A DNA stretch of 64,000 nucleotides from Squalus acanthias (taxonomy: Eukaryota), in assembly GCA_030390025.1 (NCBI GenBank), contig CM059446.1, positions 56,296,001 to 56,360,000 of the forward strand, written 5' to 3'. Under the pieces are notes generated by a model. The model did no database searches. It was not told the origin of the DNA and worked only from the letters and a program-made list of their open reading frames with translations. Position numbers and translations under genes: made by a program. Shown here one piece after another: positions 2,531 to 63,202 of this stretch; position 1 is the stretch's first letter; each line of letters starts with the position of its first letter.

Positions 2531-2706
2531 GAACAAGGTCCAGAGCGAGAAAAGGCTAATCAGGCCTTCCAGCCCGGTCCATCCATTTGGCATTCTACAT
2601 CCAAGGATTCCTGTGGTAGAGCCAACCAGAGAGAGGGCACAGCCTTGAAATGCAAAAGTGAGAAGTCGCACAACACCAGGTTATAGTCCAACAGTTTTAT
2701 TTGAAA

Positions 2707-2744
2707 TCACAAGCTTTCGGAGCGGCTGCTCCTTCGTCAGGTGA
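2707..2744 (-). ncRNA. Minimal type I hammerhead ribozyme motif (mirror copy)
   Basis: Exact reverse complement of 3145-3182. Confidence 0.75.
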
Positions 2745-3144
2745 AGTGAAGGAATACAAAATCGACAAAGAATATATAGATAGAGAACAATGCATGTGTA
2801 ACTTACAATGGCAGACGACTACATTTAATCCTCCTGACTGTTTATCTGCCGAGGCGTGACAAAAGGCAATCAGGTCAGCCAGGAAGGCACCACATCAAAG
2901 ACATAGCAAGATACAACTGAGACAATGAGGTGGGGTTACAGGGGGTCCTGTAACCCCACCTCATTGTCTCAGTTGTATCTTGCTATGTCTTTGATGTGGT
3001 GCCTTCCTGGCTGACCTGATTGCCTTTTGTCACACCTCGGCAGATAAACAGTCAGGAGGATTAAATGTAGTCGTCTGCCATTGTAAGTTACACATGCATT
3101 GTTCTCTATCTATATATGCTTTGTCAATTTTGTATTCCTTCACT

Positions 3145-3182
3145 TCACCTGACGAAGGAGCAGCCGCTCCGAAAGCTTGTGA
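3145..3182 (+). ncRNA. Minimal type I hammerhead ribozyme motif
   Basis: UCAC-CUGACGA-A-GGAGC(AGCC)GCUCC-GAA-AGCU-U-GUGA: stem I UCAC/GUGA, core CUGANGA and GAAA, 5-bp stem II, palindromic AGCU stem III. Confidence 0.75.
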
Positions 3183-3529
3183 TTTCAAATAAAACTGTTG
3201 GACTATAACCTGGTGTTGTGCGACTTCTCACTTTTGTCCACCCCAGTCCAACACCGGCATCTCCGCATCATGACCACTATTGAAATGCAAAGCATGACTC
3301 AAGTAAGTTAAAGCTAAAGTCAGGCTGGATCTACATGCAGCCCCATTTCTAACAATGTATAATATTGAACAATTACATTTATAAAATGTTCAGCCTAGTT
3401 TTACTACTTATGTAGCTAGAAAGAGAGACAAAAAAACAATCTTAGTAAAAGGGAGTGTCAAGAAACACTTCAATAGATGTTTAATGATGAAGAGTTCTTG
3501 CATATTTTGGAGTATGTTTGTGCTTACAT

Positions 3530-4170
3530 AGTATTTACAGCACAGAAACAGGCCATTTGGCCCAACAGGTCTATGCCGGTGTTTATGCTCCACTCGAGCC
3601 TCCTCCCACCCCTCTTCATCCATCCCAATTAACATATTCTTCTATTCCTTTTCCCCCCCTCATGTGTTTATCTAGCTTCTCCTTAAATGCATCTATGTTA
3701 TTCAGCTCAACTACTCCTTGATGGAGAGTTCCACCTTCTAACCACTGTCTGGATAAAGAAGTTTCTCCTGAATTCCCTATTGGATTTATTAGTGGCTATC
3801 TTATATTTATGCCCCTTAGTTCTGGTCTCCTCTGCAAGTGGAAACATCTTCTTTACGTCTACCCAATCATAATCTTGAAACCCTCCAGGTCACCCCTCAG
3901 TCTTCTCTTTTCTAGAGAAGAGAAGGAGCCCCAGCCTGTTCAATCTTTCTTGTTAAGTATAATCTCTCAGTTCTGGTATCATCCTAGGAAATGTTTTTTG
4001 CACCTTCTCCAGTGTCTTTATATCCTTTTTATAAATATGGAGACCAGAACTGCTCACAGTGCTCCCAAGTGTGGTCTAACCAAGGTTCTATATAAGTTTA
4101 ACAATTTCTCTGCTTTTCAATTCTATCCCTCTAGAAATGAACCCCAGTGCTTTGTTTTTTTTATGGCTTT
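3530..4170 (-). mobile_element. CR1/HER1 LINE 3' fragment
   Basis: Reverse-strand CR1 tail (ggccatttggcccaac) and LVRPHLE.C.QFWSP remnant. Confidence 0.85.
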
Positions 4171-11972: not shown

Positions 11973-12710
11973 GGGGGAAAAAATAGGGTTGCGCCCCCTT
12001 TGGGGCGCTAACTTCACCAGGGCGCTACTTTTAGCGCCCCCACGCCCGAAATTCACTGGTAGCGCCGCAAGAGGGAGGTGGGGCCCTACTGGAAGCGCCC
12101 CGCCTCCCCCTCTTGGGGCGCTGCGAGTGAATATCACGGCGCTACGGCCACAGCGCCACGTCACGCCGCGGTACTGCAGGGCTTCCTCCCCTTATTAAAG
12201 GGGAGGGGCCTAGCACAGCACGACCCGGGGCCCAGCTGGGCCACCAGGGATCGGAGTGCCGGCAAAAGAGCTCGGCACTCAAGAGAAGTGCCAGGCTCAT
12301 GGAGCGCAGTCGGCACCCCGCCGGGGGTGGGGGGGTGGGGCGGGGCTGCACAGAAGGCCGGGGACAGGTGCTGGCAGGCGGCCAGCAACAAAAATGGCCG
12401 CCCAGCACCCCTTCTTTAATTTGCGCCGCCCCGGCCTCAGGTAGGCCCCCCTGACCCTGTTGGACATAGCGTCTGGCGGTAAGTCAAGGGGCGCTACCGA
12501 AGATCGCAGCTGGGGTGCTGTGCATGGCGATGATGTCATCGCCGGAGGCGCAGTGCCATGGGGCACTAACAGTTATCGCCGCCGCTAACCTTCCGCTGAA
12601 TTTCGCAGGAGGCGTTGGCGGCGCCGCACCCAGGCGCGTGTTGCTTTGCGCCCCGTTAGCGCCCTCTTAGGGCGCTAACGGGAGGCGCAAATCAACCGAA
12701 TTTTCCCCCC
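11973..12710. mobile_element. CpG-rich PIF/Harbinger-type MITE
   Basis: Ends GGGGGAAAA / TTTTCCCCC, 3-bp ATA on both flanks, many subterminal TTAGCGCCC/GGGCGCTAA motifs. Confidence 0.7.
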
Positions 12711-13262: not shown

Positions 13263-13406
13263 TTGTGCCAATGGAAATGAGAAGTGGGAGAGATGTAGAA
13301 CAGGCAGCTGATCAGATATCACCTGTTTTACACTATTGCACAAAGTCAAAATCTCCTTTGATTTCTCCTTTTGGATATTTTTTTCTTTTGCTGTGATATG
13401 TAGAGC

Positions 13407-15370
13407 ATAAGAACATAAGAAATAGGAACAGGAGTCGGCCATTTGGCCCCTGGAGCCTGCTCCGCCATTCAATAAGATCATGGCTGATCTTCTACCTCAT
13501 CTCCACTTTCCTGCACTATCCCCATATCCCTTGATTCCCTTAATATTCGCAAATCTATTGATCTGTCTTGAATATACTCAACGACTCAGCCTCCACAGTC
13601 CCCTGGGATAGAGAATTCCAAAGATTCACCACCCTCTGAGTGAAGAAATTTCTCCTCAGCTCAGTCCTAAATGGCCGATCTCTTATTCTGAGACTGTGAC
13701 CCCTGGTTCTAGACCCCCCCAGCCAGGGGAAACATCCTCCCTGCATCTACCCTGTCAAGCCTTGTAAGAATTTGGTATGTTTCAATGAGATCACCTCTCA
13801 TTCTTCTAAACTCTCAAGAATATAGGCCTAGTCTACTCAATCTCTCCTCATAGGACAACCCCGCCATCCCAGGAACCAGTCTGGTGAACCTTTGTTGCAC
13901 TCCCTCTTAAGTATATCCTTCCTTAGGTAAGGGGACCAAAACTGTACACAATACTCCAGGTGTGGTTTCACCAGGGCCCTATATAGTTGCTGTAAGACGT
14001 CTTTACTCTTATACTCAAATCCTCTTGTAATAAAGGCCAACGTACCATTTGCTTTCCTAATTACTTGCTGTACCTGCATGTTAACTTTCAGTGATTCGTG
14101 TACAAGGACACCCAGGTCCCTCTGAACACCAACATTTCCCAATCTCTCACCATTTAAAAAATACTCTGCTTTTCTATTTTTCCTACCGAAGTGGATAACT
14201 TCACATTTCTCCACATTATATTCCATTTGCCATATTCTTGCCCATTCACTTAGCCTGTCTATATCCCCTTGAAGCCTCCTTGCATTCCCACCCAGCTTTG
14301 TATCATCACCAAACTTGGATATATTACATTTCGTCCCCTCATCCAAATCATTGATGTAGATTGTGAATAGCTGAGGCCCAAGCACTGATCCTTGCAGTAC
14401 CCCACTAGTTACAGCCTGCCAACCCGAAATGACCCATTTATTCCTTCTCTCTGTTTTCTGTCCATTAACCAATCCTCTATCCATGCTAGTATATTATCCC
14501 CAATCCCATGAGCCCTAATGCTGTTTAATAACCTCTTGTGTGGCACCTTATCGAATGCATTCTGAAAATCCAAATACACCACATCCACTGGTTCCCCCTT
14601 ATCTATTCTGCTAGTTACAACCTCAAAAAATTCTAACAGATTTGTCATACACGATTTCCCTTTCATAAATCCGTGTTGACTCTGCCCAATCCTATTATTA
14701 TTTTCTAAGTGCCCTGTTACCACGTCCTTAATAATAGATTCTAGCATTTTCCCTACTACTGATGTCAGGCTAACTGGTCTGTTGTTCCCCATTTTCTCTC
14801 TCCCTCCTTAAATAGTGGGATTACATTTGCTACCTTCCAATCCACGGGAACCATTCTAGAATCTATGGAATTTTGGAAAATGACAACCAATGCATCCACT
14901 ATCTCTATAGCCACCTCTTTCAAAACCCTAGGATGTAGGCCATCAGCTCCAAGGGATTTATCGGCTTTCAGTCCCATTAATTTCTCTAGTACAATTTTTT
15001 TTACTAATACTAATTTCTTTCAGTTCTTCATTCTCGCTAGACCCTTGGTTCTCCACTATTTCCAGGAAGATTTTTGCGTCTTCTTCCGTGAAGACAGACA
15101 CAAAGTATTTGTTTAATTTCTCTGCCATTTCCTTATTCCTCATTATAATTTCTCCTGTCTCAGCCTGTAAGGGACCCACATTTACTTTTGCTAATTTTTT
15201 CCTTTTTACATACCTATAGAAGCTTTTACAGTCTGTTTATATGTCTCTCGCTAGTTTACTCTCGTATTCTATTTTCCCTTTCTTTATCAATTTCTTGGTC
15301 CTCCTTTGCTGAATTCTAAAATCCTCCCAATCCTCAGGCTTACTACTCTTTTTGGCAACATTATAAGCCC
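13407..15370 (-). mobile_element. 5'-truncated CR1/HER1 LINE with frameshifted reverse transcriptase
   Basis: Consecutive ORF pieces: GADGLHPRVLKE, RPVSLTSVVGKMLE, QHGF.KGKSC.TNL, VYLDFQNAFDKVPH, GVLQGSVLGP, SKFGDDTKL; 3' tail of TTCTTATG repeats. Confidence 0.96.
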
Positions 15371-18030: not shown

Positions 18031-20536
18031 CATTTATAACCCAATCTCAGCATATCACTGACGTTTTTCCCCAAAATGCAGGAAGTTGAGGGTAGAAAAT
18101 GCACGCAAACTTTGCCGTTGCAATTTATAATCCCCATCAGAAATTTAACTGAATTCCAGCCTTGTATCTCACTGCCAGCTATCTATAACCTATATATAAT
18201 GTAGGTTTCCTGCAGTTTTATTACACACTAGCCTTAGTAAGTAATACTTCTATACCTCAGTGCAACGCATTAACGATTTCACGTCATTCAACACAACTGT
18301 CTCATTTTAAAAAACCCAGTATAAGTCGGGCCCCAGTTCCCTATGCCACTTACATTCTACATACACTGCCTCGCAGAATGTGTGCACCAGGTGCAAAGCT
18401 CCTCCCCCAGTGGTTACATTTTAAATGTTTTGACTCTTTAAACTTTTTAATTAATTGCAGGTGGGTCTAAAGTGTTCAGGAGGTTCAAGGGACCTCCCCA
18501 AGGCACTTTTTACACCTGGTTTCACACTGCATTGGATTTAAACTCCACGTGGTGTCAGGCGCTGACTCTGGATTTACATTACAAATTTAGCGTTGGTGAG
18601 AAGCAGAAACTGTTTTGCATCAATGCCAAAGTTAAAGTGTAAATGCACTTAGTTACAGCTGCAAAGAAAGCAGATCCCTACAGCACAATGCAATCAAACA
18701 AAGTGGATGGTAGTTAATTTCTTCTTTTAAACTTAGAATTTTCTTTTGCTTAAAGGACCTTTTCCACTGCAGCGTAGAAAAGATTTAAAGAGGCACCCGT
18801 CTTCTTGAAAAAGTGTCTGTCAAAAGCGCTCTTATTTGCGTACAAATACACAATGCAGTGATGTAAATGCCAATGAGAGGCAACATCCTGTCACTCATAT
18901 ATCATTGTTAGTGTGACAAAAATGCTAAGTGGCTCTTCCCCCCCTGCCCAAACTGAAGAAAAGTGTGCCTCCTTTCATAAAGCACTGCTCTCTGAAAGAT
19001 AACTTCAGTGTAGAATTAAGAATGACAAGTGGCACTGGGACCTGTTCTATATTTTTTTTAGTAGTTCCATTTACAGGTTTCTTAGCTGCTAAAGACTGGA
19101 GCAGCTGCATTAACTGTCACATAAACCAAAGGGCTCACTCTGCAGTGCGTCAGTTCAGAAAACGTCTGTTAATATGATCAGGTCGAACACATTAACAAAT
19201 CAGTAAGGATCCAAATTAAAAAAGGAAATAAACTGCAAAAGCTAGAAATACACAACAGTTCAGTCAGCATCTGCACAGCAATATCAGAATGCACCAGAAC
19301 GGAGAGGATCCTCTTGACTTAGAACCCCGCAGGATGCTAAAATGGAGGAAAGCAGGGCGTCACAGAGAAACCTTCAAAATGGGATTATTCAAAAAAACTA
19401 ATTGGTTTCTTCCACCGCCCCCCAAACTGAAATTAATCTACTTCCCAATCGCAGTATTTAACTTTACACTAAAGTTCCTCTTCTTTAAAGGGATATACAT
19501 TTTGAGATCCAAAAATCCCTAAATACTCTGCTTCAAAAGTCCATAACACCAAAAATAATCTCTTCTCCCCCCCCCACCACCATAAATGAAGAATTTGAAG
19601 TGTTGTGTTCTCAATTATTCAATTTTCATCAGTTCCTCTTTTCACACTGAAGTTATCTAATATCACATATAATGAAAGATCGCATATTAATCCCAATTAG
19701 ATCCGACACCGGGGTCAATCATAGTCACAAGGGGGCTTGCTACTGATCTGGGTCAGAGCAGATACCCCCTGGCCAAGGCACGTGAAGACACCAATGGAGG
19801 ATGCTTCTCAATAATTCTCACTTGGGGTGAAATTGTGCTGTGGGATACAATCATGTTAATATGAAATTCCTTTGCTCATTATTTCAAGAGAGGTTTCAAA
19901 TTAAAGAGTTAGTACCTCTGTTAAAATCAGGCGTGCAGATTAGCATATGAAGTGTTGATGCAGGAATGTCCTATTTGTGACTCTGGAGCACTGGCAAATT
20001 CGACCCTTGAAGTCCAAGCAACTGAGTCTTGTGTAGCTTTTTTTTTTTACTGTCTGGTTTGTCCTGTTCAAATTTTGTGGGCCTGGATGTTTGGAAAGTT
20101 CTTAGCACTGTTGTCTTATTTGTGGATAGATCCTAATCAGAACACCAAGATCAGGTAGTGTAAGCAACTTAGCATATATGTGAATTAACAAAAACATGGA
20201 TTTAAGCTTCATATGTAGCCCTGAAACTCCATGGTAAACACCTGGGAAGCTGAGGAAGACAAAAGATTGGACAAATTCTATTAATATGTTCTAATGCTAA
20301 AGCACAATATGATTTCATCCCCACAATTTTTTCTTTCAATGGAAATGAGAATTAAATTGTACCGTAAAATCTGTTGTCAAGACATACCTGTTTCTGTGCT
20401 TCTATCCTGTTGGTATAAATACCACGTAAGCTCTTGCTCTATGATGGCTGACATAAAGAACTCAAATAGTTATTTACTAGATTTCATTTGGATCCCAATA
20501 TAAAAAGTGGCACAGACACAGCTGCCAAGATCACTT

Positions 20537-20739
20537 TGATGTGGAGATGCCGGTGTTGGACTGGGGTGGACAAAAGTGAGAAGTCGCACAACACCAGGTT
20601 ATAGTCCAACAGTTTTATTTGAAATCACAAGCTTTCGGAGCGCTGCTCCTTCGTCAGGTGAAGTATGACGAAGGAGCAGCCGCTCCGAAAGCTTGTGATT
20701 TCAAATAAAGCTGTTGGACTATAACCTGGTGTTGTGCGA
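20537..20739 (-). mobile_element. Second, shorter fold-back copy of the same Penelope-like element
   Basis: Near identical to the 2653-3283 terminal sequence. Arms 20584-20656 and 20666-20739, 9-nt spacer, direct repeat AAGATCACTTTG at 20527-20538 and 20739-20750. Confidence 0.85.
20625..20661 (-). ncRNA. Minimal type I hammerhead ribozyme motif
   Basis: Minus strand UCAC-CUGACGA-A-GGAGC(AGC)GCUCC-GAAAGCUU-GUGA. The plus-strand copy is truncated at the first C of the core. Confidence 0.7.
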
Positions 20740-21544
20740 AGATCACTTTGGACACCAGTCATAATAGCAATGAGCATCAGAGAATCCATTTCGAGTGACG
20801 CAATGTGGGAAGATGTAGGTTTGATCTTCATCCCAGCTCAGTTCCTGATCTCGAGCCAAGCCAGGCAGAGGCCCTAGCTGGAGCACTTCCTGAAGGGGGT
20901 AGGGAAAACCAAAAGTGGTGGAGGGGGGGGGAGTGATTTGGTTATAATTATTTGGAAGCAGGCTGACCACCTGATTTTTCAGCAGCAGGGGCGCAGGACC
21001 TAGGCAGGACCAAAAAACACCAGGGAGAACGCTGAGGATGCCTGCCCTTCATCGGAAGGTAAATTCCCTCAGCAAGAACATTTTAGAAGTAAAGCGTGAC
21101 AAATGTAGAGTAAAACTCCATCTACTCAATCCCAACAATCTGCCTTAACTCTAATCTCAAAATTAAATCCTAAACTTGCATGCCAGCCATTGCTTGCAGC
21201 ATTGATGAGGCTGCCGATGAAGTGCGAATCATAGCTAGCTGTGCTATCAACTTACTTACTAGGATGAAACTGCCCAAATTCATTTTACATAGCATCCTTA
21301 CAGCAAGTGGAGATATTAGACCTTGATTGCATAAGTGTGGGCTGGATTCAAAATTGGTTCCCTGAAGTGAAGAAGATTGTGCTAATCCACTGTGTCGCTA
21401 GTCTCTTAAATTTCATCTTTAGTAAGAAAAGTATGATCACGCTTAGAGATTTTAATTTTTTTTTAATCTTGCCCTATTCACAGCAAATGTTCCCTGTTGC
21501 CATTATAATGGAAACAGAAGTAGTTTCACTAGTAGCGAGCTAGG

Positions 21545-26899: not shown

Positions 26900-27721
26900 G
26901 GGCTGGATTTTCATTGACCCGTGGAGGCGGGTTTGGAGGCGTGTGGGGGGTTAAAGTTGCAGATTCGGGGGTCCCGACCCCATCCCGCCTCCATGCCAGT
27001 TTCGCTAGAGGCGGGTACCCAACCTGTGCTGGGACCCGCCTCCCCGAGGCGGGAAGGGGATTAGTGACAATTAACTGCCTGTTAACAGGCAGTTTTTTGC
27101 CTAATCCCCATTTTGAAAGCTGAAATGTGGGCTTCCTGACAGGTCCCAACCACGCCAAGTTAGTGAGGCGGACCGTGGGTCTGCAGGGGTTGGAGGGGTC
27201 GATATGTCCGGTGGGCAGGTGAGTGATGGGTGCATGTGTGCAGAGGTAAGTATGTAAGGTAAGTGCAAAGTGTGGGAAAAAGTTTTACTTACCTTAACTT
27301 CCTCCTGCAGGTGTCAGCCCTTCAGTTCTCGGGAGTCAGAAATCTCACCGGCACAGAAAGCAGAAAGGCCATGGTGCTGTCAAAAGTTTCAGCCTCTGTT
27401 TTCTGTGCTGGAATGATTTCTAACTCAGCCTGAGAGGAAGGACTCAAATTAGAAGACAAATTGTCAGTGTTTGACAGCTTCACAGAGCTATCAAACGCTG
27501 ATATTTCATCTGTCAAAAGCTCTTGACAGATGAAATGTCAATCTGTGACGTCACCTGTTGCCGGGTGGCCCTTAATTGGCCTGCTGAGCTCGCTGGGCGG
27601 GCTCAACAAGGTCAATCAAGTGAAAATACAGTGGGTTGGCCACAAGTCGATGGAGGCGGGACTACAACCCAAAAAGTGGGAGTCCCGACTCCATCACGTC
27701 CCCAGTATCAAAATCCAGCCC
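26900..27721. mobile_element. PIF/Harbinger-type MITE in the last MAP2K5 intron
   Basis: Perfect 12-bp TIR GGGCTGGATTTT / AAAATCCAGCCC, flanks TAC/TAT, internal 42-bp palindrome at 27499-27540. Confidence 0.75.
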
Positions 27722-35409: not shown

Positions 35410-35626
35410 ATTTCAAGAATAGGTCATTGTTAAAGAGATGCCCACCTACATTTGCATGTTAATTATTTCATCCCAACGGTGATGAGGGTCAGAGGAAAAT
35501 TGCGCCAATATAAAAGCCGTCAGTCGAACGTTTGCTCTGGCTTCAACAAAGCACGCAAGTAACTTAAACCGTTAAAAAAAGGTGTTAAACAAGTTTATTG
35601 GTTCAACTACATCACAAATTAAGTAC
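35410..35626 (+). repeat. 217-bp unique segment, source copy of a local duplication
   Basis: Matches 36913-37128 except one substitution and one A in a homopolymer. Confidence 0.95.
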
Positions 35627-36912: not shown

Positions 36913-36918
<6 letters not shown>

Positions 36919-37128
36919 AGAATAGGTCATTGTTAAAGAGATGCCCACCTACATTTGCATGTTAATTATTTCATCCCAACGGTGATGAGGGTCAGAGGAA
37001 AATTGCGCCAATATAAAAGCCGTCAGTCGAACGTTTGCTCTGGCTTCAACAAAGCAGGCAAGTAACTTAAACCGTTAAAAAAGGTGTTAAACAAGTTTAT
37101 TGGTTCAACTACATCACAAATTAAGTAC
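36913..37128 (+). repeat. Duplicate copy embedded in a (TA)n tract
   Basis: Preceded by (TA)n 36880-36912 and followed by AATATATAAATATGTATAATATA. Confidence 0.95.
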
Positions 37129-57146: not shown

Positions 57147-60104
57147 CTGGGAAGCAGTAAGACAAAGAGTATGTGTGAGAGAGGGAGAGAGAGAGAGAGA
57201 GGGAGAAATCAAACAAAAAAATTGTGGTTATTTTAATTACATGCAATTTTTCTGACAAATTGAGTAATTCTATGTCAGTCTCTTTGACCCCAAACCTGAA
57301 CATTTGAGAAGGATATTGATCGATTTTTTTTTAAACTTAAATGTCTTTAGCTGGACTTTGGTCATCTAAGCTATTGTTAATATAAGATAATCAATTCTCA
57401 TTTCACATGGATAATTACCAGACTTCAATGTAAATACTGTACTACTTTGCTCAATATTTAGTTATTTTGATATCTAAACCTAGAATAATTTTCTTTAATT
57501 TTGTGCAAGTGGAATTGACTTCACAAAAAATTAAAATACACAGTAGATGGAAAGTCACGATAGCATCAATCAAAAATTTGCCCTAAAAGGAGGAAGGTTA
57601 TTGAAAACTTGTTTTTATATAACTTCAAACTTTAATGCTTCACTAGGACCAGTAACAATCATTAATTTACAAAAAAAAGTTATTCAGAAAAATATTAGAG
57701 ACATATCCCAAAAATAATCAATTTGCTGGCACAGAATTGGTTTACTAACTGCATAAATCCCAGTAAAACTATAAAAAAAATTACCATTACAATTATAAGC
57801 AAACAGTTATTGCAGCAGCCAATTTAAAGGCAGCAAGCTGATTGCACCTCCCAGTACATAGCAAAAACCCTCGGATGCAATTCGTTTGCAATTTCAACAA
57901 AAAAAGACTTCAAATCTTGCAGAATTATGCGCAGAAATTTCTTAAAATTAAGATCTGCGGGAGTTTAATGGTTGCCTCATCAAATTTGCAATTGCTGAAG
58001 AAGAGCAGAATATAAAAGGCAGCTGGAAGTGACTGCATTTTCATCTGTTCTCATTTTTCCATTAAAAATACCTTTTGGCTGCATTCTCCGTGACATCCCT
58101 GTTAAAACTACCCCGCAAAGTATGATACATGCACCTATTTAAATTAACAAAGAGATGACTTATTTTAATCTCACAGTGCTTTGGACTGCTTCAGCCATTT
58201 GGATGAGCAATATATCATTACATACAACCTTTCAATGCTTCAGGCAAAACTCAATGTGTGTAGCATTTGGTAGGAGCCAAACAATTTCTCTACTATATAA
58301 CTGTGTCAAATGCACGCGTGTATTCATTATGGCAAAAAAGAGAAAGAAAAAGAAAAAAAAAGTGTGTGTGTGTGTGGTGGGGGGGGCGGTGATTGAAGAA
58401 GCTTTGATGTGATGAAAAAAATAAGATGAAAAGCACCTCTGCAATTTGTGTGCTTCATTATCAATGGTAGCAAATAGATACAATCAGAGCTTCAAATGTG
58501 ATTAGTAAATATACATGTAATTGCCGTAGCCAATTACAACTTCAAATTATCAGAAAAATGAGATCAGTAATTACAAGGGAGAAAATTAAGTAGATCTCTC
58601 ATCTGAGCTTTGTCTCCCATTTATACAACAGGAGGCTGCTGGAAGAATACAATCAAATCAGAAAAGTAAATTAAGGGGAGACAGAGGTAGGGAAAGTCAG
58701 TGAATAAAAACCCATTTGGCAATGAGCATCACAATCCCAGTCTTTAACATCTATATAAGGTATAACATTACACTGAGATTTATGATCAGGCAGTGGGGGG
58801 GCGGGGACACCTCCAAGAGCACAACTGAGGTCATAATGCCGACAGACTTCCACTTCTATAGATGTATTTATAGTGCACCAATATATTTATTGATTTTTTT
58901 TTTTGTTGGTAAGTTATTTAAATTTTTCCTCCATTACTGCAGGCAAGCAGCCAAGGTCTCTGGCAGCCAGGTCAGAGCAGCTGCCAGCACGAGTCAAAGG
59001 AGTAAGAAAGTGGCCAATCACAAAATTTATTGTCTATTTTTTGACGTGTGTCTGTGTGTGTGTGTATATTTTTTTTAAAAATAGGTATGGATTTGGCCAG
59101 AATGGTTTTCTTTTAGGCAGGTGGGTCAGGACCTTTATTATTATATATGTGCAATAATCACATGGGTGAAGTATAGCACCAGTACCATCCTACAGCTATC
59201 TGTTCACTGGAGCGAAGACCAGTTATAATTTTGAAGTTTCTCTTCTCAAACAAAAATCCATTAGAACCGAGACAGAAGTGGGAAAACAGATTAAGAGCTT
59301 GCTTTTATTTAAAACCGAAACGGAAAATAAACTCCGGCTGATATTTACGGAAGAATTTAGTGGCAGATCACAGTTTAATTTAATTCAGGAAAATACCTAG
59401 TACATTAACCTTCCATTCAGTCAACCTTTTCGCTGCTTTTGCTCAGCTGGAAACACTGTGGAGGGGGCGATTGATTTATGCTGGAAACTTGGCCAGGGTA
59501 GTACTCGGGGTGAAGTTCTTCTATTCCTCCAGTACTTTCAGTTTCTGTATGATGCCTTATATCCTCTTGCAAGATATGCTTAGATTAATAGAGGCACTGT
59601 CATTGAGTCAAAGGGTGGTACCACAACTAAATGTTTCTTACAATAACAAACTTTAGCTGCTTTATGTTGGCTTTGTTTAAATTCAGATTCCAGGACAATG
59701 GTGTCTGTGAGCCACCAGCTCCCAGTGTTTATACTACTAAACCTGGCTCCCTTACCCCAGCAGCAGACTGGGTCTATAAGTTCGCTATTGGTATAAGGGA
59801 ACGATTCATAGTGTAAACACCAGGAACAGGCTCATGAACACTGATCCTCTTAAATCCCAATTAAATCAAGGGCAATATAAAAGCAGTTAGCACGAGTGAA
59901 GCTTGAGGAGTTAATGAATGGCAATGGACCCCACTGTTGAGGCATTAATTAAAATTCATCATTAGACATTTGTTATTTTATTTACATATATAGTTTGTTT
60001 AAAAAAAAACTTTTTAAAATGGGCACACGGCACTGACAATTCTACAGGCAAAAGGGCAACAATGAAGATAATAGCATAAGAGCTGAAAAGTGGCACTGTC
60101 GTAA

Positions 60105-63037: not shown

Positions 63038-63202
63038 NNNNNNNNNNNNNNNNNNNNNNNNNNNNNNNNNNNNNNNNNNNNNNNNNNNNNNNNNNNNNNN
63101 NNNNNNNNNNNNNNNNNNNNNNNNNNNNNNNNNNNNNNNNNNNNNNNNNNNNNNNNNNNNNNNNNNNNNNNNNNNNNNNNNNNNNNNNNNNNNNNNNNNN
63201 NN
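63038..63202. other. Assembly gap (165 N), probably a collapsed (GAAA)n microsatellite
   Basis: N run flanked by GAGAAA and GAAAGAAAG. Confidence 0.9.

Follow-up and report, generated by a model that had tools for sequence, protein, structure and literature searches.

How does a single insertion come to hold the same sequence twice, head to head, in arms that are almost perfect mirror images of each other? This question is raised by a near-perfect inverted repeat in the 64-kb window (the whole stretch of DNA that we analysed), whose arms at 2653-2942 (minus strand) and 2947-3236 (plus strand) are 290 nt each and 99% complementary. The arms are parted by a 4-nt spacer, GGGT, at 2943-2946 and mismatch at three pairs of positions (2855/3034, 2771/3118 and 2763/3126). 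On either side stands the 12-mer TTGAAATGCAAA, found at 2645-2656 and 3280-3291 (plus strand) and nowhere else in the window on either strand; the chance of such a flanking pair is around 1e-4. Recomputation bore out the palindrome described in a first-pass annotation, with its arms, loop, mismatches and 12-bp duplication. The same annotation had the 12-mers bracket the palindrome, and the duplication is indeed exact on both sides; the bracket is nonetheless asymmetric, an unmirrored 43 nt (3237-3279, plus strand) separating the right arm from the right 12-mer only.

The left target duplication shares its last 4 nt with the start of the left arm, a microhomology, and the arms proper are therefore 286 nt long. 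The mirror symmetry ends exactly at the target duplication and includes none of the flank. The duplication has an A/T content of 9/12, the insert carries no poly(A), and an open reading frame check of the insert found no reading frame within it.

The insert likely belongs to a Penelope-like element (PLE) family, as had been proposed, because a ribozyme motif, a one-sided tail, an inverted copy and a target duplication are found together. Based on repeat comparison and the reading frame check, the direct arm is a 5′-truncated pLTR copy without reading frame and the inverted arm a 5′-truncated pLTR copy without tail. An adjacent inverted, 5′-truncated copy and a tail of 30-40 bp at one end are given as typical of PLEs in PMC8557442, where the formation of the inverted repeat is still called undefined. 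With the EN+ PLEs (Penelope/Poseidon, Neptune and Naiad) the insert shares the head-to-head inverted pLTR, the tail at one end, the short duplication, 5′ truncation, the junction palindrome and the lack of poly(A). Inverted pLTRs and palindromes at the inverted junction have also been described in Adineta, where self-priming was proposed and duplications measure 8-10 bp (PMC3846280) compared to 12 bp here; the tail is 43 nt here compared to 30-40 nt in EN+ PLEs. Unlike in those elements, both arms are truncated inside the pLTR at nearly one base, which leaves the whole insert as an ORF-less 584-bp hairpin.

The insert is a copy, truncated twice, from a high-copy family that is likely Penelope-like, and the locus is likely an ordinary, textbook PLE insertion product. 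The insert is a non-coding, dead insertion for which no host function is indicated. EN+ PLEs carry a single ORF for a telomerase-like reverse transcriptase and a GIY-YIG endonuclease. No reverse transcriptase or endonuclease gene of the insert's family was found, and two DNA patterns of the family found 0 loci among viral, prokaryote-genome and metagenome contigs. A MITE or foldback DNA transposon was considered and rejected: 43 nt part the right arm from the right duplication, and the family ends are scattered in clusters.

Each arm carries a minimal type-I hammerhead motif, at 3145-3182 on the plus strand in the direct arm (predicted cut after 3178) and at 2707-2744 on the minus strand in the inverted arm (core at 2740). 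Our own hammerhead descriptor matched three times in the window (3149, 2740 and 20657), always in this PLE family, and none of 20 shuffled versions of the window gave a hit. Among the Rfam models, no hammerhead matched. Thirteen Rfam matches to miRNA-precursor and sRNA models were rejected, all being under the gathering scores and expected of any perfect hairpin. The motif at 3145-3182 consists of a 4-bp helix I, an unpaired A and then a 5-bp helix II, with a palindromic AGCU replacing helix III. The short helix I, the unpaired base before helix II, a G-C closing pair and the palindromic substitute are all features of the minimal PLE hammerheads in PMC4209133; helix II is shorter here (7-8 bp in those ribozymes), and cleavage here is predicted only. 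The same source describes paired hammerhead motifs in Schistosoma, 100-700 bp apart on opposite strands.

Non-coding, hammerhead-bearing and pLTR-related, the insert also resembles the animal non-LTR retrozymes (bioRxiv 10.64898/2026.07.22.740005), with a unit of ~340 nt compared to a mean of 363 bp for retrozymes in one cartilaginous fish sampled in that study. Unlike retrozymes, it forms a single inverted pair with a PLE tail and no tandem array. There is no head-to-tail tandem in either copy in the window and no whole-unit tandem joint among the matches listed. Partial tandems are a trait of EN+ PLEs, as are retained introns, and a few go-back joints (3272>3142 and 3235>3141) suggest short tandems. 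A non-autonomous retrozyme source is possible.

The second copy lies at 20527-20750 on the opposite strand, is 98% identical to the first and has its own 12-bp duplication with an A/T content of 8/12. A duplication search places this duplication at 20527-20538 on the tail side and at 20739-20750 on the other side (both minus strand). The direct arm, with hammerhead and tail, occupies 20539-20664 (minus strand), and the tail-less inverted arm of 74 nt occupies 20666-20739 (plus strand), overlapping the duplication by 1 nt. The spacer is 9 nt long, made of the first 8 nt of the direct-arm sequence and one extra base. Both copies in the window thus carry an inverted 5′-truncated copy head to head at the 5′ end, a one-sided tail and a 12-bp duplication. 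The 43-nt right-side tail, the hammerhead motif of each arm and the second copy were all absent from the first-pass annotation.

The locus was compared with contigs of 4 of 24 sequencing runs, aligned to 2905-3540 at 86% likeness; the other 20 runs were unused, and half of the sampled words were present in only one of the 24 runs. Two of the runs, X1 and X2, come from two studies of the same organism (A), and one of them may be the source of the assembly. One contig each in X1 and X2 spans 3256/3257 to 3540 with 0 differences: the right junction of tail, duplication and flank is real and unbranched in both runs. Independent contig confirmation covers this right junction only, the aligned stretch beginning at 2905. 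The centre junction of the first copy is absent among the contig pieces listed for 2905-3540 (32 of 56,481), an absence that is uninformative for contigs; symmetric fold-backs are under-represented in them.

Two related species (organisms I and K) each have a contig whose match to the right flank begins at 3282; to the left of it, these contigs go on for 213 and 219 letters, respectively, that do not fit the element. Extrapolated by these lengths, they would end at 2434 and 2428, a little within the repeat bounding the left flank (2478). Both species appear to be without the insert, and an empty-site check in relatives, as proposed earlier, gave contigs consistent with an empty site; the single 12-mer expected there we infer rather than read, the contig letters not being shown and the match beginning 2 nt inside the duplication. 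Entry of the hairpin in a single event, as had been suggested, is supported by the one target duplication and by the relatives, which appear empty.

Contigs aligned to the family number 12,800 in X1 and 20,027 in X2, with depth peaking over the 3′ core, and organisms I and K share only this core, from ~3134. Among the 24 of 667 loose-end rows listed, 3′ loose ends fall behind 3235 (41 contigs), 3240 (22), 3271 (69) and 3272 (55) in X1 and behind 3271 (80) and 3280 (48) in X2, with the clusters at 3235 and 3271/3272 lying 36-37 nt apart. Both ends of the first copy are found at such family 3′-end clusters. The left end, which is the outer end of the inverted arm, maps by mirror to 3232-3236, at the inner cluster, and the right end, where the tail terminates, to 3279/3280, at the outer cluster (behind 3271, 3272 and 3280). 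All six opposite-strand joints listed for other copies show an asymmetry of 39-92 nt, their polarity not being stated. Two joints of other copies, 3142/3232 and 3142/3234, are possibly of the adjacent (L1) type, joint polarity again not being given. As a separate observation, many family copies begin at 3138-3144, the 5′ edge of the hammerhead, where the matches of the relatives also start; a strong stop, a transcript end or a splice boundary is possible at this place.

Next, we asked which family alleles the arms carry, allele shares being summed contig depths that differ widely between runs (for example 16% versus 54% for 3088 T>G). In the first copy, the two arms carry the same letter at 12 of the 13 family-variable positions and match at all three family indel sites (X1 and X2, among the rows listed), with minority alleles in common at 3001 and 3130. 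Because of this agreement at variable positions and indel sites, the arms probably began identical or nearly so, which upholds an earlier claim that they had started identical.

The arms of the second copy differ at 2 of 74 nt. One C is missing at the 3164 site in the direct arm and present in the inverted arm, which also has G at the 3194 site (A>G). Both differences are family variants: the deletion makes up 14% and 7% of depth and the A>G change 33% and 22% in X1 and X2, respectively. If mutation were uniform, the chance that both differences hit family variants would be ~7e-4 (variants account for 8 of 296 possible changes). Because both differences are common family variants, the two arms probably had different templates. 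Nonetheless, the second copy is a single case, its arm divergence is not significantly above that of the first copy (Fisher p = 0.27), and later conversion or recurrent mutation could explain its discordant arms.

For the origin of the first copy we favour a course of events which we regard as an even call: the two arms were written separately from both ends of one cut and then joined head to head. The element endonuclease would nick both strands, 12 nt apart. The bottom-strand end would prime at the outer start site (3279/3280) and copy the tail and the pLTR, and the top-strand end, aided by the 4-nt pairing, would prime at the inner start site (3232-3236) and copy the pLTR without the tail. 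Both cDNAs would halt at or near a shared stop, located at ~2942-2947 in the first copy and, in the second, close to where the hammerhead has its 5′ edge. Second-strand synthesis and end joining would then fuse them, and the few bases by which one cDNA is longer would remain as the spacer. The templates would often be one sequence, as in the first copy, but may differ, as in the second. We infer these priming steps from what is observed, namely the anatomy, the ribozyme motif, the tail, the duplication and the position of the ends relative to the family.

Priming from both ends would place the two ends of the insert on family-wide 3′-end clusters, where they lie. It would also allow the different family alleles in the arms of the second copy, which self-copying cannot yield without later change. 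The spacers point the same way. Two contigs of X1 continue from the left arm into the spacer or past it (joints 2947>3138 and 2943>3200), and a sense contig begins matching exactly at 2947 with 21 letters left over. Because of these three contigs from other copies, the spacer of the first copy likely belongs to the inverted arm (minus strand, continuing through 2947) and is antisense, whereas that of the second belongs to the direct arm. This difference in spacer polarity between the two copies argues for two-ended priming, as does the offset of 39-92 nt in every opposite-strand joint listed.

Known systems offer parallels for the separate steps. For the anole Poseidon protein, a predicted dimer, nicking and extension of both strands have been observed in vitro, with reverse transcription beginning at two sites that flank the tail (PMC11167929); these start sites and the two-strand extension match the two ends of the insert and the two end clusters of the family. 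Its template carries an upstream, uncleaved hammerhead, which we liken to the layout of the first copy. The main text of PMC11167929 leaves inverted products undiscussed, the word "inverted" occurring once, in a method. An intact target duplication together with microhomology at the inverted 5′ junction is the signature of L1 twin priming (PMC11702581), and by analogy the intact duplications and the overlaps at the inverted ends (4 nt in the first copy, 1 nt in the second) would favour two-ended priming here. The closing of the L1 inversion junction by end joining is a further likeness. The two parts of an L1 inversion, one inverted and one direct, derive from neighbouring stretches of a single RNA (PMC11702581). 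Here the same 286 nt are duplicated, which calls for another template, another pass or a fold-back.

Several points weigh against two-ended priming. Initiation by the Poseidon protein in vitro required no target homology (PMC11167929), compared to the overlaps found here. The shared stop at 2942-2947 is drawn from two contigs of one run at 86% likeness, and the reference sequence itself changes there. Inverted-arm ends of other copies may make up part of the 3235 cluster, and the end-cluster argument would then be partly circular. Finally, a snap-back of the top-strand cDNA fits the first copy alone equally well, given the 12/13 concordance, the common minority alleles and stops within 5 nt.

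This snap-back is the strongest of the alternatives, although we consider it unlikely. Both ends would again prime. The top-strand cDNA, started at the inner site, would fold on its own 3′ end with the GGGT loop and write the direct arm itself, while the bottom-strand cDNA would provide the tail and anneal to the folded top-strand cDNA. Such a course accounts for the tight centre without a shared stop and for the minority alleles common to both arms, and the loop of the first copy appears to continue the inverted arm itself, without extra bases; self-priming has also been proposed for PLE palindromes (PMC3846280). The fold would nevertheless be primed by only 1-2 bp, the listed opposite-strand joints are offset by 39-92 nt, and the second copy has a spacer of direct-arm sequence with one extra base and arms with different family alleles.

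It is improbable that the hairpin was copied whole from a palindromic source, or that it arose after insertion by replication fold-back or arm-to-arm conversion. In X1, another contig has an inverted arm that ends at 2947 like that of the first copy, joined to another partner (3138), at a depth of 144 compared to 19.6 for single-copy flank. That the two inverted arms end at one place speaks for two-ended priming with a shared stop. As to the depth of this head-to-head junction, ~7x single-copy, either hot spots gave rise to it repeatedly or a palindromic source passed it on. Some junctions may accordingly propagate, and Adineta has derivative copies with the same inverted layout (PMC3846280). 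Against copying or remodelling, the mirror of the first copy stops exactly at the target duplication and takes in no flank, the outer ends match family end clusters, and the junctions differ between the two copies.

Slightly less probable again is the snap-back of the first-pass annotation, in which a single tail-primed cDNA folds, copies itself as far as the edge of the tail and pairs by 4 nt with the overhang of the target. The 4-nt overlap between left arm and duplication and the near-identity of the arms would follow from it, and the spacer polarity of the second copy is compatible with it. It predicts a sense loop, whereas three contigs indicate an antisense loop in the first copy; the discordant family alleles of the second copy and the stop at the inner end cluster of the family are left unexplained. 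As a general rule, snap-back is not supported, given the antisense loop and the discordant arms, and the idea as a whole has partial support. An assembly or library artefact (fold-back chimera) is very improbable: the centre and left junctions are indeed absent among the 32 contig pieces listed, the left flank being outside the aligned stretch, but the exact 12-bp duplication, the one-sided tail, the three arm differences, the unmirrored flanks, a second copy of the same anatomy and a right junction identical in two studies all speak against it.

Whether inverted pLTRs of PLEs generally result from two-template, double-ended target-primed reverse transcription from both tail-flanking start sites, and not from self-priming, is a wider claim to which we give a little less than even weight. 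If true, allele discordance between arms and spacer polarity would report the mechanism directly in this genome, given its very many short palindromic copies and its segregating family variants.

The differences between the arms bear on the age of the insertion. The first copy differs between arms at 3 of 286 nt, which corresponds to 0.5% per arm (95% interval 0.1-1.5%), compared to a flank divergence, per lineage, of 2.0% (organism I) and 3.0% (organism K). These values fit an insertion younger than both splits and match the apparent empty sites. The locus has persisted long enough to acquire three differences and is present in both the X1 and X2 samples. Two of the mismatches had been read as CpG transitions. 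Their CpG context is correct; judged by family alleles, only 3126, where G makes up 95-99% of depth in the family, is a CpG loss, and it lies on the right arm. No variant reaching 3% was counted for the family at 3034 or 3118 in X1 and X2; therefore the left arm has the derived letter at both positions, and 3034 is a CpG gain. The insertion had also been proposed to be datable in the way of LTR pairs. Arm divergence does serve as a rough, approximate clock, though not as a clean LTR-style one, because snap-back is unsupported as a general rule and the arms may have separate templates. The two copies in the window stand as a warning against such dating.

A transcript of the first copy has a predicted fold of -566.7 kcal/mol (z = -65 versus 20 shuffles). 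A read-through transcript would form a single 290-bp duplex, with double-stranded RNA, editing and cruciforms as predictions, and would lock both hammerhead motifs in a long hairpin, unlike the ribozymes of PMC4209133. In lizard, Penelope is the main hyper-edited LINE-class repeat (PMC5625713). Should the density of two in 64 kb be typical, such hairpins would be a major source of long double-stranded RNA.

The structure and the idea of self-priming are already published, and the allele test of mechanism is a modest addition. Our literature search, which covered few subscription papers and had the older Penelope structure papers outside its scope, found no twin-priming account of PLE inversions and no report of this repeat in sharks; the available text of PMC12910113 holds nothing on inverted copies. 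The two copies in the window are opposite in spacer polarity, and one of them has discordant arms; this points to a cheap genome-wide test of self-priming versus two-ended priming.

Elsewhere in the window, 3 of the 150 longest of 175 stop-to-stop frames (at least 70 aa) matched Pfam. No host gene was found among these frames, and there is no evidence that the first copy lies within a transcript. A LINE remnant at 13406-14807 (minus strand) holds two reverse-transcriptase fragments at 13.8-14.8 kb (Pfam RVT_1), and we take it to be CR1-like. The frame at 59384-59653 (plus strand) has a weak match to the TMEM70/TMEM186/TMEM223 family (E 2.7e-4, 21.4 bits compared to a cut-off of 22) and is possibly an exon or a chance match. 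A gap in the assembly, 165 N at 63038-63202, is distant from the palindrome.

Two further kinds of repeat are found. A direct repeat of 217 bp with 99% identity has its copies at 35410-35626 and 36913-37128, with 1,286 bp between them. AT-rich simple sequence borders the second copy on both sides, and the pair appears to be a local duplication of recent date. Finally, four short imperfect palindromes (42-59 nt, 82-90%) lie at 174-224, 12640-12696, 27056-27109 and 27499-27540 and are unrelated to the PLE family.
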